Positions 25,739 through 53,681 of a stretch of 64,000 nt of DNA are shown piece after piece. The translations under genes were made by a program, and so were the position numbers. The stretch lies in the IMG/VR virus record IMGVR_UViG_3300031420_000399; one strand, 5' to 3'. Below the pieces are notes generated by a model. That model was not told the origin of the DNA. It did no database searches and was given only the letters and a program-made list of their open reading frames with translations. Position 1 is the stretch's first letter. The number at the start of each line of letters is the position of its first letter. The stretch comes from a virus (taxonomy: Duplodnaviria > Heunggongvirae > Uroviricota > Caudoviricetes).

Positions 25739-27193
25739 ATGGCCAAGGGACAAATCCATCTCACACCCGATGGACCAGCTCCCTGCTCTGCCGACCCCGC
25801 AAAGCCCGGAGCTCGCGGTTGCCCCTACGGAGCCGGAGGTCACTTTGCCACTGAGTCTGAGGCAGAACAGGCCTACCAGAAACTCATGGAAGCACAAGGG
25901 CTCGATTCGCTGGGTTCTAGCTCATCGTCCCTGAGTGATCTACGCCGAAAGCTTCAGGCGCTGAACGGAGCTGGATCACCGAGGCTCGAAGAGCTTCAGG
26001 ATCTCGGCAGTCGCATCGAACATGAGATCCTAGCCCGGGCGGGCATCGAGGTGGATCGGGACGACTTGAGCCCGGAGGAGCTAGCCGTGCTAGCCAAGAG
26101 TGCCTCGAGCGTGCTCCGAGAAATCCAGGGTGAGCCCGTGGTCCTCCGCAGCAAGTTCCACGGCCCCTTCGCCAAGCAGCTCAAGGAGGCTCTAGCTCCC
26201 GTGCCCAGTGGAGCCGCTTACCTGGTCTACGGGGATGTCCACACGGAGACGGTGAACGCTCGCAACGGATCCAGAGATGGGTTCCACATCCAGCAGGCTG
26301 CTATCATGGCTCCCGCATCGGTCGAATCCAAGAGCCCCCTGAAGGTCAGCGCACTGGCAGTCCGTGGGGACTTTGTGGTGGACTCCTCCATCGCTGTACG
26401 CCATGAGATCGAGAGCGGAGGGCTCCAGGGCTTCGCCGTGGATCGCATCGAACGAGGTGTGGGAGAGCGACTCCAGGAAGGCGACAGCGTGCTCCACGCT
26501 ATCCGCCAGAACCGGGCAGATGATCGCTTCATCGAGCTTCTCCAGGAGAAGGTTCTTGACTCGGATGGAGTGATCCTCCCCGGTCAGACCGAGCGTTTCC
26601 GGGAGCTCGCTCCGGAGCTCCTGGAGTCGGCAGAGGGTTCAGCAGTTGTCTCCAGCTTCTATGCTGGTAGAAAGCCCACGGGTGCCATCGCTCGAGGAAA
26701 GCGCTACCGGAAGGTGGCCAAGGACTTCGAGCTCAAGGACGACCGGGGTGAGAGCTACGGTGTCGGGCTCGATCTCTATGAGGTCCAGGAGAAGCGGCTG
26801 AGCTTCCGGGACCACACCATCGGCACTAAGCGCTACGGCGGCGACAACAACGCCCAGAACTCAGTGCTCCTCCATGAGTTCGGCCACGCCATCCAGTCAG
26901 CCCGATCCGGTGGCATTCCCGGTGAGAGGGAGCTCTTCCAGAAGATCTATCCCCAGGGTGAGCGCATCAAGGATGATGGCTACGAGCGCTTCAGTGGCTT
27001 CCCCGACGACTACATGGGAGATGTGGGCGGCCGGGAGGTCTTCACCCGGGCCACCGAGGGTCTCTTCTATCCGCAGTACTCGGGCAATGAGTACCTCTAC
27101 GACGGCTCCGAACGCAGCCAGGAGGTTCGTCGCTGGGCTCTAGGGACCTGGGCATTCCTCAGCGCAGAGGGGCTCAAGACGAGCAAGGGCTAA
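25739..27193 (+). CDS. protein with N-terminal H-C-C-H tag and C-terminal HExxH zinc metallopeptidase-like domain
   Basis: First ~55 aa shared with 52845..53681; VLLHEFGHAIQ..REVFTRATEGLF. Confidence 0.75.
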   Translation: MAKGQIHLTPDGPAPCSADPAKPGARGCPYGAGGHFATESEAEQAYQKLMEAQGLDSLGSSSSSLSDLRRKLQALNGAGSPRLEELQDLGSRIEHEILARAGIEVDRDDLSPEELAVLAKSASSVLREIQGEPVVLRSKFHGPFAKQLKEALAPVPSGAAYLVYGDVHTETVNARNGSRDGFHIQQAAIMAPASVESKSPLKVSALAVRGDFVVDSSIAVRHEIESGGLQGFAVDRIERGVGERLQEGDSVLHAIRQNRADDRFIELLQEKVLDSDGVILPGQTERFRELAPELLESAEGSAVVSSFYAGRKPTGAIARGKRYRKVAKDFELKDDRGESYGVGLDLYEVQEKRLSFRDHTIGTKRYGGDNNAQNSVLLHEFGHAIQSARSGGIPGERELFQKIYPQGERIKDDGYERFSGFPDDYMGDVGGREVFTRATEGLFYPQYSGNEYLYDGSERSQEVRRWALGTWAFLSAEGLKTSKG

Positions 27194-27324
27194 GGCTAAG
27201 CCCCAGATGCCCGAGATGAGCCCCTAGATTCTCCTTCTCGAAATCTGTGGTTGCTAGAGCATGGAGCTCATGATAGGGTCGGGCTGAAGCCACTGCACAG
27301 ATAAATCTGAAACGAGACACCTCT

Positions 27325-27663
27325 ATGGTTGACATCGCACCTGAAGATCACCACGCCTCCAACTGGAAGAGCTGGCTCGAGGACAAGGATGGAAACTTCG
27401 ATGAGGAGGAGCTCCCCTGGTACGGCCACGGGGAGGATAGCCCGCAATACGGACCCGGTGTCCCTCCGGCTGCACAGACAGAGGCAGCCCGGCGCTTCGT
27501 GAGTAGCTGGCTCAACGAAGATGGTCACGGCTTTGTCATCCCCGGGAGCGAGTGGGGCCTTTCGCTGAAGCACTGGCTCCACATCCTCGTAGCCCGGCCC
27601 GCAGAGGATGGCCGAGCACCAGATCCTACGACAGCACCCGTCTCCCAGGAAGAGGGCAGCTGA
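27325..27663 (+). CDS. acidic hypothetical protein
   Basis: Co-oriented, typical codon bias. Confidence 0.75.
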   Translation: MVDIAPEDHHASNWKSWLEDKDGNFDEEELPWYGHGEDSPQYGPGVPPAAQTEAARRFVSSWLNEDGHGFVIPGSEWGLSLKHWLHILVARPAEDGRAPDPTTAPVSQEEGS

Positions 27664-28031
27664 TGGAGAGCGGTCACCAGTTCAGCCCAGAGTCCAGGGA
27701 GCGCTTCGAGGCGGTCAAGCCCGAGAACTACAAGCGAGAGCTCCGCCGGCTCGGGAGGAAGACCTTCGAGGCTCAGTTCCTCTTCGGGTTCGTGCTCTTC
27801 CTCGGCGCCATCAGTCCGCTCTTCGCGCTGGCCATCGCTTCGATGAGCGGAGGCTTCGCCCTCTTCTGGGTGATCCTCATGGGAGTCTGCCTGGTGAAGG
27901 CATTCCGAAGGATCGAGAACCCTATAGTGCTCATGGAGGTTCGCCAGCTCATCCTTGAGGCCAAGTACAAGGCAGAGGTCGCTGACCCCATCGCAGATGC
28001 TCTGAGGGAGACCCGGGAAGAGAACAAGTGA
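27663..28031 (+). CDS. membrane protein
   Basis: TGATG coupling; two TM helices. Confidence 0.8.
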   Translation: MESGHQFSPESRERFEAVKPENYKRELRRLGRKTFEAQFLFGFVLFLGAISPLFALAIASMSGGFALFWVILMGVCLVKAFRRIENPIVLMEVRQLILEAKYKAEVADPIADALRETREENK

Positions 28032-28273
28032 TCGAGCAGCAGGCTCCACAGAGAGCCGACCACAGTCTCCTCAAGGGCGGTGCGATCACCCTCCTGCTAG
28101 GGTTCTTCGCCACAGCAGGAGGCTCCATCTGGACCATTCTCAGCCCCGTCGGCGGAGGCGTAAACTTCGGAGCAGGTTTACTCTACGAGGGCGGCATGCT
28201 TGCAGGTCTCGTAGGCGCAGTGCTCACGATTGCGGGACTCAGTGAGCTCCACAGGGCTGATCGGAAGGGCTAG
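28028..28273 (+). CDS. small membrane protein
   Basis: GTGA overlap; two TM helices. Confidence 0.75.
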   Translation: MIEQQAPQRADHSLLKGGAITLLLGFFATAGGSIWTILSPVGGGVNFGAGLLYEGGMLAGLVGAVLTIAGLSELHRADRKG

Positions 28274-28322
28274 ATCATCCGTTGATCTTGGTACTCTAGC
28301 CCCGAAAGAAGGAGAACACCCC

Positions 28323-28616
28323 GTGGACGCATCGAAGCCCCTCGAGGACAGCCGACCACTCATCGAACAGGTCCGTGCTCGCACCGCAACGCCCTACCGC
28401 TGGATGGACATCCTCGTCTGGGAACAGAACTGGCTCAAGCTCAAGGGCCACAGCCAGGAAGAGATCGACGAGGCGCTCGAGAAAGCTCGCGAGCTCAACC
28501 GGGAAGACATGCGCGCAGACGCGGAGGCCTACAGTAGGCGGCAGGAGCGCATCCGATCGATTCAGACAGCCGAGAGAATCGCCCTGGAAGTTGACCGGAG
28601 CGCCCTGAGGGCGTAG
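28323..28616 (+). CDS. hypothetical protein
   Basis: AGAAGGAG SD before GTG 28323. Confidence 0.75.
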   Translation: MDASKPLEDSRPLIEQVRARTATPYRWMDILVWEQNWLKLKGHSQEEIDEALEKARELNREDMRADAEAYSRRQERIRSIQTAERIALEVDRSALRA

Positions 28617-28683
28617 GATGATTCCATAGGCAGGTTGCTTTCAGCCGGCCTTCAGACCTTCCCCTCCCTGATAGGAGCAAACC

Positions 28684-29049
28684 ATGGCCGAGAGCACCGC
28701 ACCCCAGGGTCTCGTGATCCTCTTCGATGATGAGCGTGAGTTCGTTCCTGGTTTCCGGGATGATGCGGTGATCGTCCGCTCAGTGGACGAGGCCAAGGAG
28801 CTCTTCGATGAGCTCAAGATCAATCCTCAGCCGGTTGCCGAACTCTGGCTCGACTATGTGCTCAAGGGCTGGGAGTCGACCGACCAGGCCCTGAGCGATC
28901 TCCCCGGCGGCCTCGTGGAGCGTGTGATCTACTGCTCCAGCTCCAGCTCCGCCTTCGGGCTCCTCGAGACCATCCTCAAGGAGGACACCGGCTTCTCGGG
29001 CGAGCTCGAACACGGCTGGATGGTCTTCCCGAAGGCCTTCAAGAAGTAA
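28684..29049 (+). CDS. cyclic-phosphate-processing receiver-like domain protein
   Basis: ILFDDERE..VRSVDEAKEL..ELWLDYVL, resembling LDD.R..LSLDHDLG. Confidence 0.6.
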   Translation: MAESTAPQGLVILFDDEREFVPGFRDDAVIVRSVDEAKELFDELKINPQPVAELWLDYVLKGWESTDQALSDLPGGLVERVIYCSSSSSAFGLLETILKEDTGFSGELEHGWMVFPKAFKK

Positions 29050-29123
29050 TCAGCAGGACCTGTCGACGGTTCGCAGCTGAACCTCGGCCCACTACACAAC
29101 AGCACAGAAGGAAAGAGTAGCTC

Positions 29124-29459
29124 ATGGCCACAGTCAAGGTAGAGATCTACGGAGCAAGCGACGATCTCGTCGAAGTCGAGGGAAAGATCAAGGGAGCCGA
29201 CGAGTACTCCTATGCCGATGGCACCTGGAAGGGAGTCCTCGAGGCTCCCAACGGCGAGAGCGCCCTGGTCTTCGTGGACTACAGGGACAACGGCTTCTGG
29301 ACAGTGAGCGTCACTCCCTACGAGGAGGGCTACAAGGTCTGGCCGGTGGAGTACGCCGTCATCGACGCCAACTGCCGCTACTCGCTCACCGCCACAGTCG
29401 AGGTCCCCGAGGGTACTGTCTTCAAGTCCCTCTCCAACGAGGATGAGGACGAGGACTGA
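29124..29459 (+). CDS. phage-type hypothetical protein
   Basis: IYGASDDLVEVEG motif. Confidence 0.85.
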   Translation: MATVKVEIYGASDDLVEVEGKIKGADEYSYADGTWKGVLEAPNGESALVFVDYRDNGFWTVSVTPYEEGYKVWPVEYAVIDANCRYSLTATVEVPEGTVFKSLSNEDEDED

Positions 29460-29462
29460 TCC

Positions 29463-29645
29463 GTGCTAGCTCGAGATCGCAACTATCCGGGCAAGGAGGA
29501 TGGGCTCGAGCCTCCGAAGCTCGCCGTGATCTACTACAACGGCGTTCGGAAGACCTTCTGGTACCGCGACAGAGAGGAAGTCTTCATGCCACCCGAGGAC
29601 GAAGATCTCAACCTTGACGATGATGGGGATGATCTCGAGAATTGA
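29463..29645 (+). CDS. small acidic hypothetical protein
   Basis: Follows 3 nt after the upstream stop. Confidence 0.6.
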   Translation: MLARDRNYPGKEDGLEPPKLAVIYYNGVRKTFWYRDREEVFMPPEDEDLNLDDDGDDLEN

Positions 29646-29693
29646 CCGTGGAGGTAGTTGCAGATCGGAGATCGATAATGTACAGTGGCACCC

Positions 29694-29972
29694 ATGACCA
29701 CCGCAACCGACTCCATCCAGGACTCCGTCAACCACATGCGCGATGTGGCAGCCAATGACCTCGTCTTCGCTGCCAACCGCGTCGAGATGAAGCGGACCAT
29801 CGACGGGCTCAAGGACGCCGAGCTCGGTTCTCAGTTCATCCCCGGTTCCTTCGAGATGGCTCACGACGGCCTGAGCTTCACTGCCCAGGTCGCTGAGGGA
29901 TTCGGCTACCGCTACCGGAGCTTCCGCCGGGGCGACTTCGTCACCTTCAACCAGCAGGGTGAGATCATCTGA
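29694..29972 (+). CDS. hypothetical protein
   Basis: Leaderless TTGCAG..TACAGT promoter. Confidence 0.85.
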   Translation: MTTATDSIQDSVNHMRDVAANDLVFAANRVEMKRTIDGLKDAELGSQFIPGSFEMAHDGLSFTAQVAEGFGYRYRSFRRGDFVTFNQQGEII

Positions 29973-29987
29973 GCTCAGCTCCAGCTG

Positions 29988-30030
29988 AACCGCCCACTAC
30001 CCTTCGAGGTGGTGGGCGGTTCTGCTTTTT
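29988..30030 (+). terminator. intrinsic terminator
   Basis: AACCGCCCACTACC-CTTCGA-GGTGGTGGGCGGTT plus a T-tract. Confidence 0.85.
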
Positions 30031-30126
30031 ATGTGCAAAAACAACATTCCGTATGGAGTATTAGAGAACAAAGTTGCTGGATCTAAGGAATCCAAGTACT
30101 TCGATTTGGGTGGAGACTTTCAATGA
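30031..30126 (+). pseudogene. 31-aa mini-ORF, possible toxin C-terminal remnant coupled to the Imm26-like gene
   Basis: MCKNNIPYGVLENKVAGSKESKYFDLGGDFQ; its TGA overlaps ATG 30123; AT-rich like the downstream gene. Confidence 0.35.
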
Positions 30127-30737
30127 GAAAGATTAGGCTAAAGCTAGGTGATGTGTTTCTCGCACCCTTTGATTACCTTGAAGATGACTACAAGAAAAAA
30201 CGCCCGCTTGGAATAGGCGAGAGAGTCTTCGCCATGCAGATTGTGGGAATGAGTCATCATGGTATGCCCACAGTAGCACTCTTTGACGGCGTGTACTCCT
30301 ATAGCGAAGATCTAGATCCTTCTCAGATCGTACAATCACCAGTTCTCGCAATCATTGAGCTCGTTCCGCTCTCCTTGAGTAGGGGAGAGTTCAAGCGTAT
30401 CTCAAACCAGCCGATCGATCCCACAATGCCATATATGGCCTACGAAGTCTACTCTCTGGGAAAGCGATACATCTCTCCCGCGAGCAACGGTAATCTGATG
30501 GTTCCTTCAGAAGAGGTAAATGTTAACCTTCCACGAGTCGGATTTTCAGCTACTGGCGGAATCATGTATGAACTAGCTCATGTGTTCATCTTGGATGAGG
30601 TAAAGGATGAATGGAAAGATGATCTTGAACGACATGCCAACTATGTGAGAGTGAGAGCTGAAGCGCTCGCTCGCAACTTCTTCAATGATGCAAAGGATCC
30701 TGAATGGGTGCGTGCTCAGATCGCAAGTACTAGATGA
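30123..30737 (+). CDS. Imm26-like immunity protein (foreign composition)
   Basis: MRKIRLKLGDVF..QIVG..VALFD..PVL..GEFKRISNQPI; visibly AT-richer codons than flanks. Confidence 0.6.
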   Translation: MRKIRLKLGDVFLAPFDYLEDDYKKKRPLGIGERVFAMQIVGMSHHGMPTVALFDGVYSYSEDLDPSQIVQSPVLAIIELVPLSLSRGEFKRISNQPIDPTMPYMAYEVYSLGKRYISPASNGNLMVPSEEVNVNLPRVGFSATGGIMYELAHVFILDEVKDEWKDDLERHANYVRVRAEALARNFFNDAKDPEWVRAQIASTR

Positions 30738-30785
30738 GTTCACTATCTGTTGCGGAAGGTGACAGATCCGTGTAGGATGGCGTCC

Positions 30786-31586
30786 ATGAATGGACATGAG
30801 AACATCATCACTGAGGTTTCACACGGCGTCGAGGTCATCTCCGGCGATGTTGCTGTAAGCGACTTCCTCAAGGAGGCCGTGGCCAAGACCGGCGGTAACC
30901 GGAAGTACTCCGGGAGCTTCGAGGACCTCGAGGACCTCACCATGGCCCACATGGAGAATTGGAAGCCCGGCACCGGCTCCGTGGACGGGGATGTCCGCAT
31001 CGTCACCGTGCCCACCGAGGGCTTCTTCACTGAGGTCGTCCGGATCACCGAGGAGAACCAGCGCTCCCTGGAGGTCGTCTACAACGCCCGTCGTGCCGGC
31101 GAGGAGGCAGTGCCCACGCTCATCTTGCGAGGCATCGACCCCTCTCCCGCAGCATCTGTGGGCATCGTGATCTACCGGGCCGATGTGCTCCAGAAGGACA
31201 ACGACCGCTCCTCCCTGGCCGAGTGGGAAATCGTGGCCATCCTCACGGACCCCGAGCTTCCGAACGGTGACACCGTTCCCATGAACCCGGCCACCATGGC
31301 CCGCAACGCAGCTGACCTCAAGGGTGGTACCCACCGGGAGTACAGTGCTGAGCAGTGGCTGGAGGCTACTCTCTTCTGGCAGCGCCACGCTCGAGTCGCT
31401 CCGGCTCTTCAGGTCGCCGAGCCCACCACGGAGGCCATCGAGGCACTGGCGAACGAGCTCCCCCTGGGCTACACGGCCAGGGATCAGGACTCCAACACCT
31501 TTGAGGCCGCCGAGCGCATCATCCGGGCCGGCTGGGAGCACCCCGACTTCCCGCTTCCCCGCAAGTCCTCGGTGGAGATGCTCTAG
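30786..31586 (+). CDS. hypothetical protein
   Basis: Leaderless TTGCGG..TAGGAT promoter; strong C3 bias. Confidence 0.85.
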   Translation: MNGHENIITEVSHGVEVISGDVAVSDFLKEAVAKTGGNRKYSGSFEDLEDLTMAHMENWKPGTGSVDGDVRIVTVPTEGFFTEVVRITEENQRSLEVVYNARRAGEEAVPTLILRGIDPSPAASVGIVIYRADVLQKDNDRSSLAEWEIVAILTDPELPNGDTVPMNPATMARNAADLKGGTHREYSAEQWLEATLFWQRHARVAPALQVAEPTTEAIEALANELPLGYTARDQDSNTFEAAERIIRAGWEHPDFPLPRKSSVEML

Positions 31587-31627
31587 CAGCCTGCAGTCAG
31601 CTATCTCTTCAAGGAAAGAGAGAAACC

Positions 31628-32338
31628 TTGGCCATCGTCTACCGAGTGGAAACCCCCGAGGGATTCGGTCCCTACTCGAAGATCGCTCCCGAGCTCACCT
31701 CCCACGAGAATCACCGCAGTCCCAGGGCTGAGGGTATCGAGTTCCCCTACTACTGGTACTTCGGATTCCGGGATCTCAGCCTGCTCACGCTCTGGTTCTC
31801 AGCTGTCGAGCTCGAGGAGCTCAAGGAGTACGGCCAGAGCTGGCTCCTGAGCAAGTACGAGGTCCCAGATGACCAGCTCCTGAGCACAGCATACCAGACA
31901 GTCTTCGACCGCCGCAGCTCTCAGTCGAAGCTCCTCGGCTGTCTACCCTTGGACATGCTTGCTGGATCGCCTCGCGGGAGGCTCTCGAAGGAGCGAATCG
32001 CTGAGCTCGAGGAGAGCTTTCAGCCCCATGAGTACTGCGAGCCACGACCTCGCTTCGGCCTGTTCGAGAAGACCAAAACGCTCGGGCTCGACGAGGGGAA
32101 GTATACGCTTCAGGAGATCATCGAGAGCCTGGAGGAAGGGCGCTACTACAGCGCCGTACTGAAGTCGGAGGCCCGAGAGGATCCTGAGGGCTATCCCATC
32201 AGGTTCTTCCTCTTCAGGGGTGGATCGCTCTACCCACTGAGAGGAGCCAAGTTCCAGCCTTACTCAGCTGAGTTTCAGCCCCTCTCGGTGGAGATAGCTC
32301 TAGCCGACAAGCTCGACCTGAGCACCTTCGGAGCTTAG
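31628..32338 (+). CDS. phage-type hypothetical protein
   Basis: VYRVE..GFGPY..FGF..L..WF motif seen in phage proteins; TTG start with SD. Confidence 0.75.
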   Translation: MAIVYRVETPEGFGPYSKIAPELTSHENHRSPRAEGIEFPYYWYFGFRDLSLLTLWFSAVELEELKEYGQSWLLSKYEVPDDQLLSTAYQTVFDRRSSQSKLLGCLPLDMLAGSPRGRLSKERIAELEESFQPHEYCEPRPRFGLFEKTKTLGLDEGKYTLQEIIESLEEGRYYSAVLKSEAREDPEGYPIRFFLFRGGSLYPLRGAKFQPYSAEFQPLSVEIALADKLDLSTFGA

Positions 32339-33084
32339 CCCTCGTCAGCCTCGGCGCTATCTGCAGCGCTGTCGTCAGCTACAGCAGGTGTCTGTGGCTC
32401 GAAGCGCAGCTTGAGCGCATCGTAGATCATCCTCAGGTCCGCCTCGTCCTCATAGTAGGAACTAGGGTCAAGGACGAACTTGATAGGATTCGGCACTGTC
32501 GGGAGGCCATTGTCATCGAAGATATAGCGGTCCCGATAGGAGCGGTTGATTTCATAGGGCTGCATCACCAGATTGTCGTCGGTGAGGGGCTTTCTTGGGT
32601 CCTTGTGGCCGCGCTCGAACTTACCCTTACTCATGGACTCGAAGAGTCTTCGCGAGCGGCTCACACTCGCATCTCTTCCAGCATCTGTGGTCAGATCCTG
32701 TGCGGAGTGAAGGTACTTGTCGCTGAAGGTGAGCGCTGCAAAGCCGTAAGCAGGGCTCTTCTCGGGGGTCTTGTCGAGCTTGATGCCCACTCGCTCAATC
32801 TTGTTGGCCCACTGGATGGAATCGCCACTAGTACGGCCGAGCTTCTCTCCGATTGCCGTCAGGTGAGAGCGGTCGAAGGCTAGACCGACATTGGCAGCGA
32901 AGAGCGCGATGATCTGATGGCTGATGTTCCGATCGCTTGGCTTCGAGGGGAGCTTCACGGTCGGATTCTTAGCGATGAACTTCTGCAGACCCTGTGGCCA
33001 AGATGTGGCCTTGGTGAAACCTGCGAGAACAGCGGCGAACTGCGCGTCTGTTACCTTCTGAAGAATGCGATTGTTTTGTACCAT
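32335..33084 (-). CDS. orphan HNH/His-Me-finger-like endonuclease (restriction-enzyme-like)
   Basis: ERGHKDP..DDNLVMQP..NRSYRDRYIFD; AGAAGGA SD before ATG 33084; opposite strand, AT-rich upstream; no MTase in the window. Confidence 0.6.
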   Translation of the reverse strand: MVQNNRILQKVTDAQFAAVLAGFTKATSWPQGLQKFIAKNPTVKLPSKPSDRNISHQIIALFAANVGLAFDRSHLTAIGEKLGRTSGDSIQWANKIERVGIKLDKTPEKSPAYGFAALTFSDKYLHSAQDLTTDAGRDASVSRSRRLFESMSKGKFERGHKDPRKPLTDDNLVMQPYEINRSYRDRYIFDDNGLPTVPNPIKFVLDPSSYYEDEADLRMIYDALKLRFEPQTPAVADDSAADSAEADEG

Positions 33085-33420
33085 GATGTTATTTCCTTCT
33101 GCCATTCAAGGCGTTCGTTAAGGATGATTTCCTTACATTGAATATCGGCATAAGTACGGTCAAAACTGCATTTCCAGACAAATAGTTTGTGAGTTACATG
33201 TGAAACTGCGCTTTGCGGCTATTTCATCCTAGAGCAGCGTAGCTGTCGTACCGAAGGCATCCGGTGAAGCGCTATGGGGCCATCCCAAAGACAGCAGGAG
33301 CCTGCCTGAGGCGGCTACCCCATCAGCACATGCGACGAATCGCGCTCAGTGTTCTCGGGGCTTAGAATGGAGACCTAAGAGACCGTTGCGCAGGCAGAGC
33401 GCAGGGTATAGGATCGAACC

Positions 33421-33906
33421 ATGAACGCCACCACAATCACCAAGGCCTACGGGCTCACCATCGCCGGAGACGCAGTCGAAGGCTACCGGATCTACGACGA
33501 GCAGGGCAAGCGCCTTGTCTTCGGAGGCGAGGTCGTCGGTAAGTTCATCGACGAGCAGGACGCCAACCACTACGCCTACGACTACCAGCGGAAGATGAAG
33601 GACCCGAAGCCCTACATCGATCCCCGCACCATGGAGCGCTCCGCCACGAACAACGGCTACTACAACCCCCGGATCGTCTGGCCGGAGCACGATGGTCGGA
33701 TGGTTCGCCGGGACCACCTCCGGCCGGGAGACATCGCGGTCTCGAGCCACTACGGCCCGAGCAAGGTCCTGAAGATCAGCCAGGGTGGCTACGACGGTCA
33801 GACCACGAGCATCACCTGGGAGGGTGGCTCGGAGCGCTTCCCCAAGACCGAGATCTACCCCAGCGACGGCACCATCGAGATGCTCTCCGAGGGCTGGACT
33901 CGCTGA
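33421..33906 (+). CDS. hypothetical protein
   Basis: Leaderless TTGCGC-N17-TAGGAT promoter. Confidence 0.85.
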   Translation: MNATTITKAYGLTIAGDAVEGYRIYDEQGKRLVFGGEVVGKFIDEQDANHYAYDYQRKMKDPKPYIDPRTMERSATNNGYYNPRIVWPEHDGRMVRRDHLRPGDIAVSSHYGPSKVLKISQGGYDGQTTSITWEGGSERFPKTEIYPSDGTIEMLSEGWTR

Positions 33907-34974: not shown

Positions 34975-34979
34975 TTTCA

Positions 34980-41318: not shown

Positions 41319-41372
41319 AACTGAGGGCAACTTCCGAAAGGGGTTGCCCTCAGTTCGTTGGCTGTGTAGGTT
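41319..41372 (+). promoter_or_regulatory. stem-loop overlapping a promoter -35 element
   Basis: AACTGAGGGCAACTTCC-GAAA-GGGGTTGCCCTCAGTT; TTGCCC(41344)-N17-TAGGTT(41367). Confidence 0.65.
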
Positions 41373-45668: not shown

Positions 45669-45697
45669 GCTAAAGGGCCTTCAATGGCCCTTTAGTG
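45669..45697 (+). terminator. hairpin terminator
   Basis: CTAAAGGGCC / GGCCCTTTAG. Confidence 0.65.
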
Positions 45698-45815
45698 CAT
45701 TTTACAAGGAAATAGACAAAATAATTGCAACGAATTCGGCGTTGCGTTTGACTTTCGCCAGATAGTGCGATAATACTGGTGCTAACCCAATACACATCTA
45801 CCAGGGAAAGTCAAC

Positions 45816-47159
45816 ATGGAAACCGCAAAGAAGAGGTTCAGGCCGGCGGCCCTGAGCGCAGCAGCAGCCGTCGCTTTGGTGGCTGGCTTCCTCACCATCG
45901 TTCCCGCCAATGCTGCTACTGCAGCAGGCGACCCAAATCAGTCCTGTGCAAAGCCCATCGAACTCTCGGGCGATGAGCAGCGCGCTCTCTACGAGCGAAC
46001 CTCGGGGCTTTCCAGCGATGACCTGGCAGCTGAGCTCCTTTGCTTCAGCACTGTCGGTAGCAACCCCAAGCCGGGCGGCACGCTGAACCTGCAGGTTTCG
46101 CCGGTCTACGCCAATACTACCCTCTCCTCCTCCAGTGTCAACTGGTTGGATGAGGATGGGACCATCATCGGATCATCCCTCACGAGCGACGGAGCTGACG
46201 GCTGGACCTCGAGCCTTTCGCTGGCCGATGGTCACAGCGGGAAGACGATCCACCCGGAACTCTCCGACATCCAGATCGACCTTCCGCTCGAATACGAGGT
46301 CTCTGTTCCCGACCTCTGGGATCAGGTTTGCCTCGACGAGCTCACTCCCGCACCGGTTGAGACCCCGCCCGCGGATCCGACCACTGAGCCCACCGACGGA
46401 GAGACTCCTCCTACTCCAGTAGAGGGCGATCCGACGGCCACGCCTGCACCGACCCCCGTCATCACTGAAGCTGACAGGGAGATGTGCCTCGTAGAGCCCG
46501 GTTACACTCAGCTTGCCGATCAGCTGCTGCGTGTTCAGGGAGCCTCCTTCGTCGGAGCCGGCCAGGCCGTGAGCTACGCTCCCGCAACCCTGGGCACTGT
46601 CTCCATCAGTGGCGAGGCGCTGGTCACCACCACGCTGAAGTCGAAGATCACCGGCGCCACCAAGGCGAAGACCGTGTCCTTCCAGTGGCTCCGCAGTGGC
46701 GCTGCCATCAAGGGTGCTACCGGCTCGACCTACAAGGTCGTGGACGCTGACAGATCCAAGGATCTGACGCTGAGAGTGACAGCATCCAGCCCTGGACAGC
46801 CTGTCGTGGTCAGACCCAGCAACAAGATCTCGAAGGTGCTCGGCAAGCTCAGCACGCCGAACCCTAAGGTCAGCCTCGTCAACGGTGGCATCAGCTGCCC
46901 CCAGTGGAACTGCAACGCGAAGATGCAGGTGAAGGCAACCGTGGACAAGGGCGCCACCGCAAAGTACCAGTGGTACCGGAATGGCAAGGCAATCAAGGGC
47001 GCTACCAAGAGCACCTACGCCGTGAAGTTCAAGTACTCCAAGGGCCTCAAGTACACCGTGAAGTACACCGCCACTGTCGAGGTTTCCAAGTCCGGCTTCA
47101 AGACCGAGAAGCAGTCTAGCGAGAGCACTGCTTCCGCGTGGGTGAAGCTCCCGAAGTAG
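45816..47159 (+). CDS. secreted/cell-surface protein with Pro-Thr linker and two Ig-like repeats
   Basis: Signal peptide (..PANA); PT-rich linker; FQWLRSGAAIKGATGSTY and YQWYRNGKAIKGATKSTY. Confidence 0.85.
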   Translation: METAKKRFRPAALSAAAAVALVAGFLTIVPANAATAAGDPNQSCAKPIELSGDEQRALYERTSGLSSDDLAAELLCFSTVGSNPKPGGTLNLQVSPVYANTTLSSSSVNWLDEDGTIIGSSLTSDGADGWTSSLSLADGHSGKTIHPELSDIQIDLPLEYEVSVPDLWDQVCLDELTPAPVETPPADPTTEPTDGETPPTPVEGDPTATPAPTPVITEADREMCLVEPGYTQLADQLLRVQGASFVGAGQAVSYAPATLGTVSISGEALVTTTLKSKITGATKAKTVSFQWLRSGAAIKGATGSTYKVVDADRSKDLTLRVTASSPGQPVVVRPSNKISKVLGKLSTPNPKVSLVNGGISCPQWNCNAKMQVKATVDKGATAKYQWYRNGKAIKGATKSTYAVKFKYSKGLKYTVKYTATVEVSKSGFKTEKQSSESTASAWVKLPK

Positions 47160-47211
47160 GCTCGAAGCGCTAGTAGTTGCACGGCGGGGAACTCTGGTAT
47201 AGGATCCAATC

Positions 47212-47517
47212 ATGGACACCGACCAGAGCCCCCGCCGTTCTGCTACGCCCGCAAAGGCCGAGAGCAGCTCGCTTCCCACCGTGATCTTCTACGGAGCCGT
47301 CTGCCTGGCGATCTTCGCCATCGGACAGGGGCACTGGGGCTTCCTCCTCGTCGCTGCGCTGATCATGCTCCCCTTCGGCTTCCTCCTCATCGTCCCCGCG
47401 CTCACCAGCTACCTGGGCCTGCGCAACATGTACCGCCACCCGGAGCTCTACTCGACAAAGATCATCGAGGACGAGCAGGGCAAGTTCGTCTCAATCAGCT
47501 GGAACCGAATTCGCTGA
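47212..47517 (+). CDS. membrane protein
   Basis: Leaderless TTGCAC..TAGGAT promoter; two TM helices. Confidence 0.8.
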   Translation: MDTDQSPRRSATPAKAESSSLPTVIFYGAVCLAIFAIGQGHWGFLLVAALIMLPFGFLLIVPALTSYLGLRNMYRHPELYSTKIIEDEQGKFVSISWNRIR

Positions 47518-47556
47518 CCATCGATAGCATCAAATTCTAGGGAAGAGAGATTCACC

Positions 47557-47850
47557 ATGGCCAAGGCCAAAGTCAGCCGCATCAAGAGCTTCTCCAACAT
47601 CGACGAGGTCTTCGCTCGGATGTATGAGCAGGGCTACTTCATCAACGAGAACCACCGGGATGAGGAGCTCGCCCGGATCAAGGGGCCGACGCCTACCGGT
47701 AGCGCCAACGAATACTGGTACTCCAACGGTGCTCAGCAGCTCAAGATCTTCAAGCAGATGTTCGGATCATTCGAGCTCTGCAACTTCATGGGGATCATCA
47801 GCCCGAAGCTCGAGGAGCTCTTCGAGCTCGCAGAGATTCCCCGGCGATAG
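47557..47850 (+). CDS. hypothetical protein
   Basis: Typical codon bias. Confidence 0.8.
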   Translation: MAKAKVSRIKSFSNIDEVFARMYEQGYFINENHRDEELARIKGPTPTGSANEYWYSNGAQQLKIFKQMFGSFELCNFMGIISPKLEELFELAEIPRR

Positions 47851-47880
47851 GTCCCCGAGTCCGCCCCACTAAGATTCTGT

Positions 47881-47919
47881 ATGTCAGTATTTGACATCTC
47901 AGACATTGGCATGTAGGAT
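47881..47919 (+). promoter_or_regulatory. promoter with a palindrome over the -35 element
   Basis: ATGTCA-N5-TGACAT overlaps TTGACA(47891)-N17-TAGGAT(47914); ATG 6 nt later. Confidence 0.7.
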
Positions 47920-47925
47920 GTAAAT

Positions 47926-48228
47926 ATGAACACTCCACTTCGCTCCGAAATCCTCCACGACCAGATCGACCGGGCCCGGACCTACCTCCATCTCGCCGCG
48001 GAGACCCGGGACCTCAACCTGGCCAAGTTCGCCCTGGGGGTGCTCACGGGTGCAGTCACTGCTGGAGCCCCTGTCGAGGACCACTACCGGCTCTACGAGG
48101 CTGGCTACGAGGGACAGGCCATGGCCGACATTGAGCGCGTGCTCGATGTGGCTGACCTCCTGACCCGCCGCGGCTACAGCTATGTGGATCGGCTTCAGTA
48201 CATCGAACGGGAGGGCAACCGTGGCTAA
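47926..48228 (+). CDS. hypothetical protein
   Basis: Leaderless start. Confidence 0.85.
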   Translation: MNTPLRSEILHDQIDRARTYLHLAAETRDLNLAKFALGVLTGAVTAGAPVEDHYRLYEAGYEGQAMADIERVLDVADLLTRRGYSYVDRLQYIEREGNRG

Positions 48229-48436
48229 GCGCTTCACCATCTCAGAGACAGAAGGCCAGCAGCGGTCCTTCTCCTACCTCGTCGGGGATGACTTTCCCGT
48301 CGGATCCTGGGCTGCCGACGAACAGCCTGCAGATCTGGTCGTCGGCGAGATCGAGTCCCTGAGCTCGGGCGACAACTGTCCCTTCTTCGCCTACGATCCG
48401 GCCGGCGAGATCATCGTCGCAGTGAGCGAGCTCTAG
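48221..48436 (+). CDS. small acidic hypothetical protein
   Basis: GGAGG SD before GTG 48221. Confidence 0.75.
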   Translation: MAKRFTISETEGQQRSFSYLVGDDFPVGSWAADEQPADLVVGEIESLSSGDNCPFFAYDPAGEIIVAVSEL

Positions 48437-48481
48437 GCCATTGACTGGGCTGACCACAGACCCGAGGGTGGCTTCCGTGAG

Positions 48482-49096
48482 ATGCTCCTCCTCGACATCA
48501 TCCGGGACTACAAGCCAGTCTATCCCGATGGTGGAACCTGGGATGATGCAGCGGCCCTGCTCTACGCCGAGCAGCCTGAGCACATGGCTGAGCTCAAGGC
48601 TTCCCTGGATCGGAAGGGCTGGCGAGATCCGATCCGGCTGTCGAGCCAGGAGGACATGGACTCGGATGACGGAGAGGCCTATGTGCTCGACGGTACCCAC
48701 CGGGTAAGCCTGGCCATGCGAGAAGGCGTGATCTCTCTGCCCGTGGTGACAAGCGACGAGCTCCCCGAGTGGGACACTGAGCCCGAACCCTTCACCGAGT
48801 TCACCATCGAGTTCCTCTCGGGCCCCGAGATCACGGACGATCAGGACTACGAGCTCATGGAGCTCTTCATCTCCCTGGAGCTCAACGAGGACATCTGGCT
48901 CAACTCTGACATCAGCTCTAGCCACCGGAGCGAGCGCTGGAGCTACTACTACGATGCGCTCCAGGACGAGACCCATCACAATCAGCTCAAGCGAGTTGCC
49001 CGGGCCCGGCTCAAGCGCCACTTCCCCGAGCACAAGTTCAAGCTCACTACCTCGATCGAGAGCTTCGAGGAAGAGGAAACTCAAGAGGATGGCTAG
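48482..49096 (+). CDS. ParB/sulfiredoxin-like domain protein
   Basis: ELKASLDRKGWRDPI..YVLDGTHRVSLA..G..SLPV. Confidence 0.75.
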   Translation: MLLLDIIRDYKPVYPDGGTWDDAAALLYAEQPEHMAELKASLDRKGWRDPIRLSSQEDMDSDDGEAYVLDGTHRVSLAMREGVISLPVVTSDELPEWDTEPEPFTEFTIEFLSGPEITDDQDYELMELFISLELNEDIWLNSDISSSHRSERWSYYYDALQDETHHNQLKRVARARLKRHFPEHKFKLTTSIESFEEEETQEDG

Positions 49097-49151
49097 CTTC
49101 CCGGTCTAGCTGCCTTCAAAGACCTACCGATGGAGGCGCGATAGTGGGCAC

Positions 49152-49706
49152 ATGGTCACTCCCAGAGAAAAGCGCTATCTTGAGCTCATGCGAGGCTTCA
49201 GCTCCGAAGAGCTTGAGCGTCTCCCCCTAGAATACAGCCTCTACACGAACGACCTCCCGAAGACCATCGGGAGCTTCCTGGAGACTGGACCTAGGCTCCA
49301 CATCCCTGAGCTCGAAGTCCTGGACAGGCTGTCCGGTGAGCTCCAATCCAGCATCAACCGTCAGCTCTTCCTGACTACTCCCTGGAAGCCACCGATCGTT
49401 CTCCTCCCCCGGGACCGGAGCCGCATCAGGGCAGAGCGGGCCGCCGCGCTGAGGCTGGCAACTGAGGCGAGCGCTGACATCCACCGAAAGCTCCTCCAGG
49501 AATACTTTTTCCTCACTAACTTCTTGGAGCTCACTCTCCTAGTCCAGCGTGAGGTAGCCAGTGCTCTCGGCGCTGAGCTCAACGAGACCCATGTGGCTAC
49601 CTACAAGCGCGCCACGGCGAAGCTCATCGAGATCTTCCAGAAGACCGACGATGGCTATGAGCAGACTCAGCGCCACATCATCGAGAAAAGTCCAGCATCG
49701 GCCTGA
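49152..49706 (+). CDS. hypothetical protein, paralogue family G copy 1
   Basis: LM..ELERLPLEY.LY..DLP..EYFF...LEL..VQR. Confidence 0.8.
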   Translation: MVTPREKRYLELMRGFSSEELERLPLEYSLYTNDLPKTIGSFLETGPRLHIPELEVLDRLSGELQSSINRQLFLTTPWKPPIVLLPRDRSRIRAERAAALRLATEASADIHRKLLQEYFFLTNFLELTLLVQREVASALGAELNETHVATYKRATAKLIEIFQKTDDGYEQTQRHIIEKSPASA

Positions 49707-49820
49707 AGATAGCCCTTCTCCCGAAGAACCATTGACAGACAGCGTCGGTCATGTAGTGTTAGGGCTATGAGGGCCGATCGAGCTGCTCAGAACATCGAGA
49801 TCGATTAGGAAGTACCAGCC

Positions 49821-50024
49821 ATGGCAGCAACCCGTCAGCAGAAGATCGAGGCACTGAGCGAGTTCCTCGAGACCCGGGCTCAGGCCCGACCCCGTGGTCA
49901 CAGCTCCCTGGATGGCATCGGCTGTCCGGACCACGACGGGGCCTTCCAGGGCCTCGCCGCCGAGCTCCTCGAACTCATCGAAGAGGACGGCTACGGCTAC
50001 GCCGGGCAGGAGCCCGCAGTCTGA
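49821..50024 (+). CDS. small hypothetical protein
   Basis: TTGACA promoter at about 49733; AGGAAG SD. Confidence 0.75.
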   Translation: MAATRQQKIEALSEFLETRAQARPRGHSSLDGIGCPDHDGAFQGLAAELLELIEEDGYGYAGQEPAV

Positions 50025-50043
50025 TCTTCAGGCTCCACAGACC

Positions 50044-50084
50044 CAGAGGGACCGAAGCGACTACTCCGCGTTTCGGTCCCTCTG
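50044..50084 (+). terminator. hairpin terminator
   Basis: CAGAGGGACCGAA / TTCGGTCCCTCTG. Confidence 0.8.
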
Positions 50085-50120
50085 CTGTACTCAGGGGCAG
50101 TCGGTTCTGATAGTAGATCC

Positions 50121-50579
50121 ATGAACCCAGCAGCGGAGCAGAGTTTTCAGAAGCTCATGGGGCAGCTCTCAGAGTCTGACCTCGAAGAACTTCCCCTGGC
50201 CTACAGGGTCTACCGGGATGACCTACCGGCCCTCGTCGAGCTACTCCACGAGCAGAACCTCGCCATGCCTTTGGAGAGGCTCGACATCCTCAAGGTACTC
50301 CTCTTCGAGGCCAAGAAAAATCAGAGCGATCGGCTCGATGCTGCCTTCGATGGTGACGATGAGAAGCTCGCAGAGCTAGAGCTCTACAATCGGGCCATCG
50401 GCGAGATGGCGCTGAAGGAGTACTTCTTCTCCCTGACCTACCTGGAGCTCGGTCACTTCCTTCAGCGAATGCACTTTGAGCTCCGGGGCGGAGAAGTCCC
50501 CGATGAGATCCTGGAGCTCCAGGGATCTGTGCGAGACTCCCTGGTGAGCGCCTTCCGGCTCATCGAGGAGCTGCAGTAG
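50121..50579 (+). CDS. hypothetical protein, family G copy 2
   Basis: LM..DLEELPLAY.VY..DLP..EYFF...LEL..LQR. Confidence 0.8.
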   Translation: MNPAAEQSFQKLMGQLSESDLEELPLAYRVYRDDLPALVELLHEQNLAMPLERLDILKVLLFEAKKNQSDRLDAAFDGDDEKLAELELYNRAIGEMALKEYFFSLTYLELGHFLQRMHFELRGGEVPDEILELQGSVRDSLVSAFRLIEELQ

Positions 50580-50652
50580 GCTTTCACGGTCCTTTCTACG
50601 CATCCTCAGAGCGCAGGTTGCGGAAGCTGTTTCCATGGTGTAAGTTGACCCC

Positions 50653-51015
50653 ATGGCCAATGAGACCAATTCGACCACCGCTCCCGAATCGAGCTCGCAG
50701 AAGCTCTGGGAGATCCTGGTGCCCACCGTCCGTAACCCCAACGAAGATGGGGAGATCAGCCCCTACCGCACGCGCTATCACCGGGTGTGGGATCAGAAGG
50801 TCAAGGCCATCGCTGGCGGGCTCACGGTGCTCACGCCGGTCCGAGGGACCTGGGTCTCCGATGAGGATGAGACCTTCCACGAGCGCATGATTCCGGTTCG
50901 GATCATGTGCACCGAAGAGGAGATCCTCGAGATTGCCCACATGACCAAGAGCTACTACGATCAGCTCGCAGTGATGGTCTACATGATCTCTGCGGATGTC
51001 CGGATCATCGACTGA
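50653..51015 (+). CDS. DUF3574/P-II-like fold protein (tentative)
   Basis: GGLTVLTPVRGTWV..E..IPVRI..IA..TKSYYDQLAV; leaderless promoter. Confidence 0.5.
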   Translation: MANETNSTTAPESSSQKLWEILVPTVRNPNEDGEISPYRTRYHRVWDQKVKAIAGGLTVLTPVRGTWVSDEDETFHERMIPVRIMCTEEEILEIAHMTKSYYDQLAVMVYMISADVRIID

Positions 51016-51074
51016 TCATAGCACTACCTAGCAGGTCATAGGTTACCCCCTAACCACCGAAGGATAGCTTTCCC

Positions 51075-51659
51075 ATGAGTACAACCATCGAAAGCAGCAA
51101 GAGGCTCGCTGAGCCTCTCACCGAAGGCTCCATCCCCAAGGTTCGGGGCCACTCCAAGGAGTTCTGGTGGCAGCTGCGAGCATCAGGCATCGTGCTGGCC
51201 TCTGTTATCCTGATCTCCTACCTCTGGGATCTCTTCGGTCTTCCCGAATTCGGCCCCGAGGGCAACAGACATCAGTGGATCTTCCCCGTCGTAGTTGTCG
51301 GAATCCTTTTCTCGGTACAGAACTTCTTCAACGCCTTCCGAGATGAGTCGCCGAGACGGCGGAAGCTTCGACTGGATGCCGAGCTCGCTGCTTTCGAGCG
51401 AGAGGTCTTCCCGTTCCTGGAAGCTGAACTCAAGAAGGTCGATCGGAAGGGTGACTACTATGGCCCTCTGACAATGCCACCCCTCGACTGGACAGCTGAA
51501 CGGATGCTCAGGGACGAGAAGGAAGGTGCCTCGTGGGCTGCCCGCTATCGGGATGGCCAGGGCACCAGCCATTTCAAGTTCACACTGGAGAACGGTGGCC
51601 GCGAAGTTCACTTCCGGGCTGAGATTCCGGGTGAAATAGAAACCAAGAACGGTGTATGA
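51075..51659 (+). CDS. membrane protein
   Basis: Two N-terminal TM helices; AAGGA SD. Confidence 0.8.
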   Translation: MSTTIESSKRLAEPLTEGSIPKVRGHSKEFWWQLRASGIVLASVILISYLWDLFGLPEFGPEGNRHQWIFPVVVVGILFSVQNFFNAFRDESPRRRKLRLDAELAAFEREVFPFLEAELKKVDRKGDYYGPLTMPPLDWTAERMLRDEKEGASWAARYRDGQGTSHFKFTLENGGREVHFRAEIPGEIETKNGV

Positions 51660-51668
51660 TCAGTTTCC

Positions 51669-52007
51669 ATGAGCAACTCACAGCAGGCTGAACAGCAGCC
51701 CGAGATCGATCTCCTCGACGATGACCATGTTCAGAAGGCACTCACAGAGGCAGAGGAACACCTCTGGACGCTCATCGAGGCCCGCAACATGGATGACTCG
51801 CCGCGGATCTGGATCGCCTTCACCACGCTCCGGGCCGTGCGGATGCTCTCCAAGAGCTCGAACGGGATTCCGGGGCTCCGAGGCCTGGGGCTCAAGGAAG
51901 CACTGGAGCTCGCCGAGTCCATCAACGAACACAAGCCCCAGAGCGACCGGGAGCTCTCCATCCACAGCTACAAGTCCATCGCTGCAGGCATCGCTGTCGG
52001 CCGCTGA
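51669..52007 (+). CDS. hypothetical protein
   Basis: Typical codon bias. Confidence 0.8.
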   Translation: MSNSQQAEQQPEIDLLDDDHVQKALTEAEEHLWTLIEARNMDDSPRIWIAFTTLRAVRMLSKSSNGIPGLRGLGLKEALELAESINEHKPQSDRELSIHSYKSIAAGIAVGR

Positions 52008-52027
52008 CCACAGAAAAGAGAAGACCC

Positions 52028-52429
52028 ATGGGAATCACGGATCCGATTCACTTCGAAGTCAAAGCTCTGCACATCGAGCTCCTCAAGCGCATCAACTTTC
52101 AGGAAGGCGAGGGTGTCCCTGAGGTAAGCGCCAAGCGACCCTATGGCAACAGCGATGTGCTCGGAGATCTCCAGGAGATCTATAGCGCAACTGCTGGCCA
52201 CGAGGTTCTGAGGCTTGAGGATGGTGGCACCATCGTTCTTCAGGGTGACCGGGTGATCTCCCGCGGTGACGGCACGGGCCATGCCGAAGATGACACTGAG
52301 GCCATGCTCTGGGGGTTCCACCGTCAGATGACCACCGTGCTGGAAATCCTTGTGGACAACCTCGGCATCCAGGAAGGTACTTACAGCTGTGTGCCCTTCG
52401 GTGGAAAGTGGATCCTCCGAGAGGACTGA
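52028..52429 (+). CDS. phage-type hypothetical protein, family H copy 1
   Basis: FEVKALHIELL..KRPYGNSDV..FHRQMTTVLEI. Confidence 0.85.
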   Translation: MGITDPIHFEVKALHIELLKRINFQEGEGVPEVSAKRPYGNSDVLGDLQEIYSATAGHEVLRLEDGGTIVLQGDRVISRGDGTGHAEDDTEAMLWGFHRQMTTVLEILVDNLGIQEGTYSCVPFGGKWILRED

Positions 52430-52512
52430 GCACACTGCGCTGAGCGAGGGGTTGCGCGGTGATCCTTTCGGATGTATGGTGGTCTCACACCACACCACAG
52501 CCGGAGGAAATC

Positions 52513-52722
52513 ATGGCCATCACCACCACTTCGCTCTTCACCATCCGCACGCTCACCGAGGACGGCGAGTTCGGCTCCCAGACCGAGCCCATGGACGAGT
52601 CCGAGGCCCTGGCGACCTTCGATGACACCGTGGAGAACTCCGGTGAGTCCATCTTCGTTCAGATGATCGGCGAGGACGGCACCGTCGCCAACGAGTCCCG
52701 CGGAGAGGTCGCTGAGTACTGA
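52513..52722 (+). CDS. small acidic protein
   Basis: GGAGG SD; weak similarity to 55649..55846. Confidence 0.8.
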   Translation: MAITTTSLFTIRTLTEDGEFGSQTEPMDESEALATFDDTVENSGESIFVQMIGEDGTVANESRGEVAEY

Positions 52723-52738
52723 GCCTCATCGAACTTCC

Positions 52739-52781
52739 AGCAGAGGGGAAGCTGTCCACTAAGGATGGCCTCCCCTCTGCT
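52739..52781 (+). terminator. hairpin terminator
   Basis: AGCAGAGGGGA...TCCCCTCTGCT. Confidence 0.75.
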
Positions 52782-52844
52782 ATTCTTCGTTAGAACTGAA
52801 TTTCAGACAACCGGCTAAATCCTTCGGCATCTGGAGATTCGATC

Positions 52845-53681
52845 ATGGCAGAGCGCTTCCACTTCAACCCTGAGACAGGTCGCACAGGCAAGTGCGGTTC
52901 GGATCCCTCCAATCCTCGGGCTCGCGGGTGCCGCTTCGGTCAGTCCGATGCGCAGCACGGCGCAACTCGAGAAGAGGCCAAGGCCAACTACGAGACCAAG
53001 ATGGCTCCGGAGCTCTTCGCCAACACTCAGGCTCGAACACAGCCTGTCGAGCGTGCTCGCTACATCGACATCGGCTCCAACGAGTATGTCAGCCAGCTGC
53101 GCTACGACGGCAAGGTCTACAAGACCAAGGGCGCCGACGGCAAGGATCGCTACATCCGAGCCATCAAGAACCCCCTTGGAACACCGATCGTGTCAAGCAT
53201 CACCTGGGACAAGGAAGTCACCGGAAGCGCTGATGCCTACATCGCAGTAGAGGTCAAGGACCCCCTGGACCCCTCGCTCACAGGACAGCGCTCGATCATC
53301 GAGGGATCGGAGATGGAGGCAAGATACAGCAGCATCTCCCGGGAGGATGTGGCCGCCGCACTGAAGAAGGTCCAGGCCGACAGGGAGGCTGCGACCCCTC
53401 GGAACGAGGTTCCCGAGGGCGGCTACAAGCGCTTCAGCCACCGGGAGCTCGACGGAGAGGACTGGGAGCTCCAGGATGAAACTCGCTACAGCGCCGCAGA
53501 CCTCATTCGGCTTCGTCAGATCGACAGTGCTGCCATCGACCTTGCCGAGAAGGAAGACGGAGGCTGGGTCACCGTGAAGGTTCCCAGCGCCTCCGAAGTC
53601 AGCATCTCTGTGGAGCTCGCTCGCCGGGAGCTCGAAAAGGTCGAGGACGAGAACCGGAACAGGCTCAGGCGTTTCTTCTGA
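52845..53681 (+). CDS. protein with N-terminal H-C-C-H tag and unknown C-terminal domain
   Basis: FHFNPETGRTGKCGSDPSNPRARGCRFG..HGATREEAKANYE matches the N-terminus of 25739..27193. Confidence 0.85.
   Translation: MAERFHFNPETGRTGKCGSDPSNPRARGCRFGQSDAQHGATREEAKANYETKMAPELFANTQARTQPVERARYIDIGSNEYVSQLRYDGKVYKTKGADGKDRYIRAIKNPLGTPIVSSITWDKEVTGSADAYIAVEVKDPLDPSLTGQRSIIEGSEMEARYSSISREDVAAALKKVQADREAATPRNEVPEGGYKRFSHRELDGEDWELQDETRYSAADLIRLRQIDSAAIDLAEKEDGGWVTVKVPSASEVSISVELARRELEKVEDENRNRLRRFF

Follow-up and report, generated by a model that had tools for sequence, protein, structure and literature searches.

A small H-C-C-H domain at the ends of many unrelated enzymes of very large phage-like elements, a possible docking handle

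The 64,000-nucleotide (nt) stretch of DNA analysed here, hereafter the window, comes from a 193 kb contig of the Caudoviricetes virus record IMGVR_UViG_3300031420_000399 (IMG/VR). It contains two genes, P0001 and P0002, whose products begin with the same short H-C-C-H module, hereafter the tag. The tag is an undescribed mini-domain of about 50 residues with four invariant residues of the metal-ligand type, and most members of its family come from large phage-like contigs, few from cellular genomes. We give a probability of about one half to the reading that the tag is a docking handle, which would bring a co-regulated set of enzymes to one partner. Systems in which variable effectors share a terminal handle are already known; the new elements are this handle, its scale and the upstream motif linked to it. 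The coordinates of all features are collected in Table 1.

The likeness between P0001 and P0002 is confined to their first ~55 residues (BLASTP: residues 5-50 against 4-53, 18/50 identical, 36%, E 7e-7), and no other segment outside the N-terminus gave E < 0.9. This agrees with a previous sequence-only reading of the window, which had described two proteins sharing only their N-termini. The pattern H..P..C..DP..P.ARGC..H..EA..Y..M was found in both proteins, and a six-frame pattern scan together with a hidden Markov model (HMM) scan located exactly two copies of the tag in the window. The same reading had not recognised the module as a named family, and searches of Pfam, NCBIfam and the PDB sequences gave none either; the N-termini of P0001 and P0002 also matched no PHROG family.

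A tag profile was then built from 15 N-termini and searched against 1.84 billion cluster representatives. It matched 1,521 clusters at E<=1e-3, of which 83 reached E<=1e-10. The likeness of the two N-termini is not accidental. The tag is thus not limited to two proteins, its C-terminal partners vary, and no known housekeeping domain was matched. No Pfam or NCBIfam family covered the tagged N-terminus in 147 members, and a profile search of the PDB sequences with the tag returned no match even at E<=10. Likewise, no paper describing the domain was found in the literature on HCCH/phage and on Swiss Army Knife (SAK) RNA-repair proteins, the SAK source study lying outside this coverage.

Alignment of 144 tags showed five invariant positions, His6, Cys17, Cys29, His38 and Ala45, and two nearly invariant ones, Ala19 and Glu50 (P0002 numbering is used throughout for the family). 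The ligands are spaced as His-x10-Cys-x5 or x11-Cys-x8-His, and the consensus can be written M-x-x-[KR]-[FY]-H-[IF]-N-P-x-T-G-x-[PT]-G-x-C-x-A-(x3 or x9)-C-[PR]-F-G-x5-H-[YF]-x-[ST]-x-E-E-A-R-x-A-Y-E-x-x-M. The loop between the two cysteines occurs in two lengths, and both P0001 and P0002 carry the long one, DPSxPxxRG. The tag was terminal in 169/169 proteins, 166 of which bear it within their first 12 residues and three at the extreme C-terminus. Among these 169 proteins, one has a tandem pair of tags and three, of 68-83 amino acids (aa), are essentially stand-alone tags. Between P0002 and its ortholog in the related locus L016, the tag codons gave a ratio of non-synonymous to synonymous substitution rates (dN/dS) of 0.09 at dS ~1.1. 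Because this ratio is so low, the peptide itself, and not an RNA element alone, is under purifying selection.

A confident AlphaFold2 model of the tag, computed from the 144-sequence alignment, reached a mean predicted local distance difference test (pLDDT) score of 84. It predicts a beta-hairpin (strands 5-8 and 13-16), a long loop in which the second Cys lies, and, starting just past the second His, a helix (42-58). The four invariant ligand-type residues point to zinc binding, and the beta-hairpin, loop and alpha-helix are most likely arranged around a single zinc ion. The tag appears not to be a catalytic part of P0001 or P0002. Comparison of the model with the PDB and the AFDB clusters by Foldseek (best E 1.2) and with 48,161 chains by VIA-align gave no significant match, which for a model of 60 residues does not prove a new fold. 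The best VIA match (Z 3.1, root-mean-square deviation 4.0, 50 aligned residues) was Kunitz-like and was taken as a chance resemblance of topology. Structural look-alikes of the tag in the Atlas fall in clusters labelled 100% viral. A complex prediction of the P0001 tag, the P0002 tag and zinc scored 0.01, a value that counts neither for nor against binding between tags.

The partners attached to the tag are highly diverse. Past residue 60, 163 tagged proteins fall into 88 unrelated groups, 61 of them singletons, and many of these regions are effector-type enzymes, as expected from the constant N-terminal module with variable C-termini that had been proposed from the two window genes. The first partners, found by word-based searches, were a 438-aa exonuclease fusion, proteins of 158-180 aa and a 328-aa protein of another type. 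Pfam recognised the C-terminal domain in a minority of tagged proteins. Its matches among 147 of them included GmrSD_C (6), ADPrib_exo_Tox (4), and ART-PolyVal, RNase_T, HNH_4 and Rv2179c-like (2 each), as well as YunG, PolyA_pol/CCA-adding, 2H-SAK, GNAT, N6_N4 methylase and DUF3990; Fic, HAD and Zeta_toxin/AAA_33 domains occur in tagged genes of L006, a locus on an AT-rich 727-kb contig. The median length of tagged proteins is 282 aa, and the notion of one domain for each is an impression from protein length, not a count.

The two window proteins illustrate this diversity. P0001 had been credited with an HExxH peptidase-like domain, and its HEFGH motif is indeed present: all 9 homologues of P0001 retain H379, E380 and H383, and also E396 and E433 downstream. 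The sole Pfam match of this C-terminal domain was a weak one to Zn_peptidase_2 (E 0.29), a profile search of the PDB found no match, and Atlas feature matches to ATLF (lethal-factor)/M90-type zincin clusters are a lead only. Residues 352-477 of P0001 share 39% identity (E 1e-20) with the C-terminal end of a tagged gene product in L006, and the combination of tag and peptidase-like domain is old because it recurs in that AT-rich element. The C-terminal domain of P0002, which had been left as unknown, has no assignable family by sequence or fold searches. Its partner region belongs to the largest group, 27 proteins with a common C-terminal module of ~80 residues and a variable middle. The full-length P0002 model (pLDDT 81) gave nothing above noise in the PDB, BFVD, VIA-wide or the Atlas; a likeness of its C-terminal helices to a homeodomain or to sigma region 4 was faint (Z about 3, TM-score 0.21) and was not accepted as evidence.

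Tagged genes are often grouped. According to the tag HMM run over the fetched loci, from which all counts per locus in Table 1 derive, they are most numerous in L004, on an 828-kb contig, and in L006. In L004, six tagged genes follow one another head to tail, 3-47 nt apart, and no open reading frames (ORFs) intervene. The neighbours of the L004 and L006 arrays include Macro, ClpS, GmrSD_N, Fic, Zeta-toxin, dCMP deaminase, HAD_SAK_2 and PP2C genes, almost all of them encoded on the same strand. The two contigs may belong to exceptionally large phages or else to cellular chromosomes.

Outside such contigs the tag is scarce. It was present in 1/401 sampled Actinomycetota genomes, namely the query genome itself. 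A diverged H-C-C-H tag followed by a C-terminal membrane anchor (transmembrane region) occurs as a single gene of 178-185 aa in a few related uncultured Actinomycetota metagenome-assembled genomes (MAGs; L011 7986-8522, and also L009 and L012-L014). This chromosomal gene may represent an ancestral cellular form, a decoy or what is left of a prophage. A tblastn search of GenBank phages with three different tags found no match, short queries limiting its sensitivity, and a related-locus search of viral contigs with the tag alignment yielded no confirmed match.

The tagged genes also share an upstream motif. The octamer TCGTTAGA occurs twice in the window when both strands are scanned, each time 5' of a tagged gene; its count alone is not above chance and it is the placement that matters. 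In other loci (C)GTTAGA(T/A)A precedes most tagged genes, whatever the base composition. In L004 and L006, TTAGAWA was found within 90 nt upstream of 12/18 tagged genes vs 1/34 untagged genes (Fisher p 1e-6). Moreover, CTTCGTTAGAAC and the ribosome site are identical between P0002 and its L016 ortholog, while the spacer has diverged. A hairpin stands at the same place in L016 as at P0002, with a different sequence. Because this motif is common to them, the tagged genes are probably expressed as one set.

Taken together, these features suggest the following arrangement. Very large phage-like elements would attach a portable terminal handle to many unrelated enzymes, whose substrates may be nucleic acids, nucleotides or proteins. 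The tagged genes would stand behind a common promoter- or operator-like motif, (C)GTTAGA(T/A)A, and be expressed as one set, and the handle would dock every tagged enzyme to one partner, which may be a protein of the host or the phage, a nucleic acid or an assembly. We infer both the docking and the co-expression from the domain, its partners and the motif. Several points weigh against this arrangement. No partner of the handle was found, and beyond the four presumed metal ligands few positions are conserved (mainly A19, A45, Y49 and E50). The terminal position could simply reflect gene shuffling at ends. The domain is not strictly a phage device, because a single-copy, membrane-anchored chromosomal version exists in a few Actinomycetota. 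Finally, TTAGAWA is missing from about 1/3 of tagged genes, a number of which probably lie inside operons, and in the window the motif also stands 5' of a few small untagged genes.

The tag is carried by more than 1,500 protein clusters and yet has no entry in Pfam, NCBIfam or the PDB, which makes it a large unannotated piece of huge-phage biology. In practice the tag can serve as a flag: its carriers, even those without a recognisable domain, probably belong to one co-regulated set of accessory enzymes, and some enzymes of this set are of the kind used by phages against their hosts. If a common partner were found, it would reveal by what means phages of very large size arrange or deliver accessory enzymes by the dozen. 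The conserved motif 5' of these genes offers an entry to an unknown transcription class across elements of very different base composition.

In one specific version of the docking, which takes up the virion among the destinations proposed by the sequence-only reading, the tag could bind a component of the capsid interior, scaffold or portal, so that the enzyme set would be packaged and injected with the DNA. Such a set would amount to polyvalent proteins in 'distributed' form, or to a similar version of Alt and the internal proteins of T4. We consider this unlikely. A common upstream motif that is not of the sigma-70 type would fit one temporal class, and the concentration of the family on very large phage-like contigs, with its rarity in cellular genomes, points the same way. 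In T4, IPI-III and Alt likewise carry an N-terminal element on otherwise unrelated proteins, including an ADP-ribosyltransferase, and there too the genes are scattered away from the structural modules. The T4 capsid-targeting sequence is short, unstructured and about 10 residues long, and the prohead protease cuts it off. The tag, in contrast, is a predicted folded domain of 50 residues with metal ligands, and no conserved cleavage site is evident after it. No cultured phage with the tag emerged from the GenBank phage search described above, and the motif was not seen 5' of a recognisable structural gene; the sole candidate in the window, at 45816-47159, is without it. A weak match of P0002 to a PHROG 'virion structural protein' (E 0.04) was set aside, being shared by just 2/27 relatives at E 0.012 or weaker. 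The membrane-anchored chromosomal tag does not suit a capsid address either.

The partners of the tag do overlap with injected polyvalent proteins, which combine 2 to 15 domains in one giant polypeptide and for which an N-terminal 'header' domain, ArdC-N, has been proposed (Iyer, Burroughs, Anand, de Souza, Aravind 2017, PMC5512222). ART-PolyVal, a zincin-like HExxH peptidase, a DNA methylase, nucleases and GNAT are common to both, as is an origin in large mobile elements in conflict with their hosts. Unlike in polyvalent proteins, each tagged enzyme is a separate gene with its own small H-C-C-H domain. The tag domain was not found in that article under the terms HCCH, zinc ribbon and treble clef. 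The closest functional analogy would be the polyvalent-protein repertoire (PMC5512222) split into separate genes, each with the same handle. More broadly, huge phages might use a dedicated zinc mini-domain label together with its own promoter class to load interchangeable enzymes into the virion or another phage-built structure, a proposal that we regard as doubtful. If it were true, this address label would define a 'distributed polyvalent protein' system of ADP-ribosyltransferases, nucleases, kinases, peptidases and RNA-end enzymes.

It is also conceivable, if again rather doubtful, that the tag is a substrate-targeting zinc finger which binds RNA or DNA, at ends, at nicks or at a particular structure, and gives repair and modification enzymes the same substrate affinity. 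The PARP-type nick-sensor finger plays such a targeting role on several eukaryotic repair enzymes. Many partners do act on ends or bases, among them DEDDh exonucleases, the CCA-adding enzyme, 2H phosphoesterase, PNK-like/Zeta kinase, HAD, HNH/GmrSD nucleases and the methylase. RNase H adjoins P0001, and SAK-type RNA-repair domains and an RNA ligase occur near tagged genes in related loci. 2H-SAK (PF22547) is found in one tagged protein, and HAD, PNK-like kinase and HAD_SAK_2 (PF18143) genes lie in or beside the arrays. SAK proteins are multidomain fusions, unlike the tagged genes. The tag itself is not consistently basic (mean net charge about 0, range -5 to +6) and showed no likeness to any nucleic-acid-binding finger in sequence or fold searches. 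Furthermore, peptidase-like, Fic, protein-type ADP-ribosyltransferase, GNAT and many unknown-type partners need no nucleic acid.

Another explanation is that promoter motif, ribosome site and tag move as one module, a cassette head in which the tag would aid expression, solubility or stability with no common partner. Motif and tag do co-occur across elements of very different G+C content, the domain always lies at a gene end, and arrays of adjacent tagged genes suggest local duplication with 3' swapping. However, a dN/dS of 0.09 and four invariant ligands across 1,500 clusters exceed what a solubility tag needs, and the three C-terminal placements, the tandem copy and the stand-alone forms part the domain from the promoter module, so that we hold this explanation to be improbable.

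It is very improbable that these are classical polymorphic toxins, with the tag as a secretion or trafficking domain for bacterial export and the C-termini as toxins with cognate immunity proteins: a constant N-terminus with a hypervariable C-terminus that includes toxin-type folds (ADP-ribosyltransferases, HNH nucleases, GmrSD_C, Fic, Zeta) does recall MuF-, LXG- and Rhs-type systems, to which the sequence-only reading had compared the two genes, but no known trafficking domain (MuF, LXG, Rhs/PAAR-type), signal peptide or secretion genes were found, no immunity ORFs lie between the six consecutive tagged genes of L004, many partners are repair or biosynthetic enzymes (CCA-adding enzyme, 2H, HAD), and the family sits mainly on large phage-like contigs and not in cellular genomes.

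Table 1. Features of the two tagged window genes, loci with several tagged genes, and promoter-like sites
Feature	Location	Strand	Description
Gene P0001	25739-27193	+	484 aa: tag, helical/unknown middle, HExxH peptidase-like C-terminal domain
H-C-C-H tag of P0001	25739-25903	+	aa 1-55; His7, Cys16, Cys28, His35; long-loop subtype; HMM E 3.6e-13
HEFGH motif of P0001 zincin-like domain	26873-26887	+	aa 379-383
Upstream motif TCGTTAGATA	25700-25709	+	39 nt 5' of P0001 ATG; followed by GGAG ribosome-binding site
Gene P0002	52845-53681	+	278 aa: tag, disordered linker (aa 62-69), small beta domain (aa ~90-152), C-terminal module
H-C-C-H tag of P0002	52845-53018	+	aa 1-58; His6, Cys17, Cys29, His38; long-loop subtype; HMM E 3.2e-23
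P0002 C-terminal module	aa ~199-277		conserved helical/hairpin, no family assigned
Upstream motif TCGTTAGAAC	52787-52796	+	58 nt 5' of P0002 ATG
Inverted repeat (hairpin)	52740-52780	+	ends upstream transcription unit; directly 5' of P0002 motif; not called by terminator scan
TTGAC-N16-19-TAnnnT sites	7052, 8445, 8963, 19673, 22961, 28591, 33974, 39016, 47891, 49732, 53710, 60330, 62228	+	promoter-like
L004	21 kb of 828-kb JGI contig		9 tagged genes
L006	21 kb of 727-kb AT-rich ENA contig		9 tagged genes, including Fic-, HAD- and Zeta/AAA_33-type enzymes
L008	7.6-kb contig		3 tagged genes
L016	relative of window element		3 tagged genes
L017	relative of window element		3 tagged genes

The window has ~60% G+C and consists of tightly packed short genes on the + strand, mostly orphans. 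Identifiable products include an RNase H, encoded directly 5' of P0001, an HD protein, an FtsK-like ATPase, an R2K ATP-grasp protein and a DUF3228 protein. Small ORFs come after both P0001 and P0002, but nearly all genes of the window are small. No near-identical DNA turned up among phages and plasmids when 20 kb of the window was searched by megablast. A GmrSD_N-type gene at 11562-12188 encodes a protein 77% identical to that of L004 5498-6091, which links the window element to the 828-kb contig. In L017, the gene at 7587-8573 (P0027) represents a third partner type of the long-loop tag, of 328-334 aa; its neighbours include an RNA ligase (PF09414) and two GNAT genes, surroundings that suggest RNA repair or modification.

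A stand-alone DEDDh (RNase_T) exonuclease gene is located at 55924-56577, 2.2 kb 3' of P0002. A link between the tag and exonucleases was considered and rejected. A DEDDh exonuclease is fused to the tag in P0019 and P0032, but the three exonucleases are barely related; an exonuclease gene directly 5' of the chromosomal tag gene in L011 is missing as a neighbour in the other four MAG loci.

As quoted in PMC3601020, the late promoters of phage SPO1 have the form CGTTAGA(N17-19)GATATT and are read by gp33/gp34. Their -35 heptamer, CGTTAGA, is identical to window positions 25701-25707 and 52788-52794 and to sequences 5' of several tagged genes elsewhere. Unlike in SPO1, no GATATT-like -10 hexamer was seen 17-19 nt downstream of CGTTAGA at 25701 or 52788. 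An SPO1-type late promoter was therefore not accepted, only the -35 heptamer matching. The upstream motif lies 20-58 nt from the start codon, in several cases just 5' of the ribosome site, and because of this closeness it looks more like a -10 element or an operator than a -35 element. The heptamer match may hint at a related phage sigma-like factor. TTAGAWA also occurs at 41371 and 44778, 5' of untagged ORFs of 68 aa (start 41422) and 44 aa (start 44816); both have the motif spacing of the tagged genes and a ribosome site, and may share their expression class.

Finally, promoter-like sites of the form TTGAC-N16-19-TAnnnT number 13 on the + strand of the window vs 1 on the - strand. The tagged genes are without them, and the sites make up a second class of promoter, host-like in form, apart from the one of the tagged genes. 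Six of the 13 sites on the + strand carry the -10 hexamer TAGGAT.

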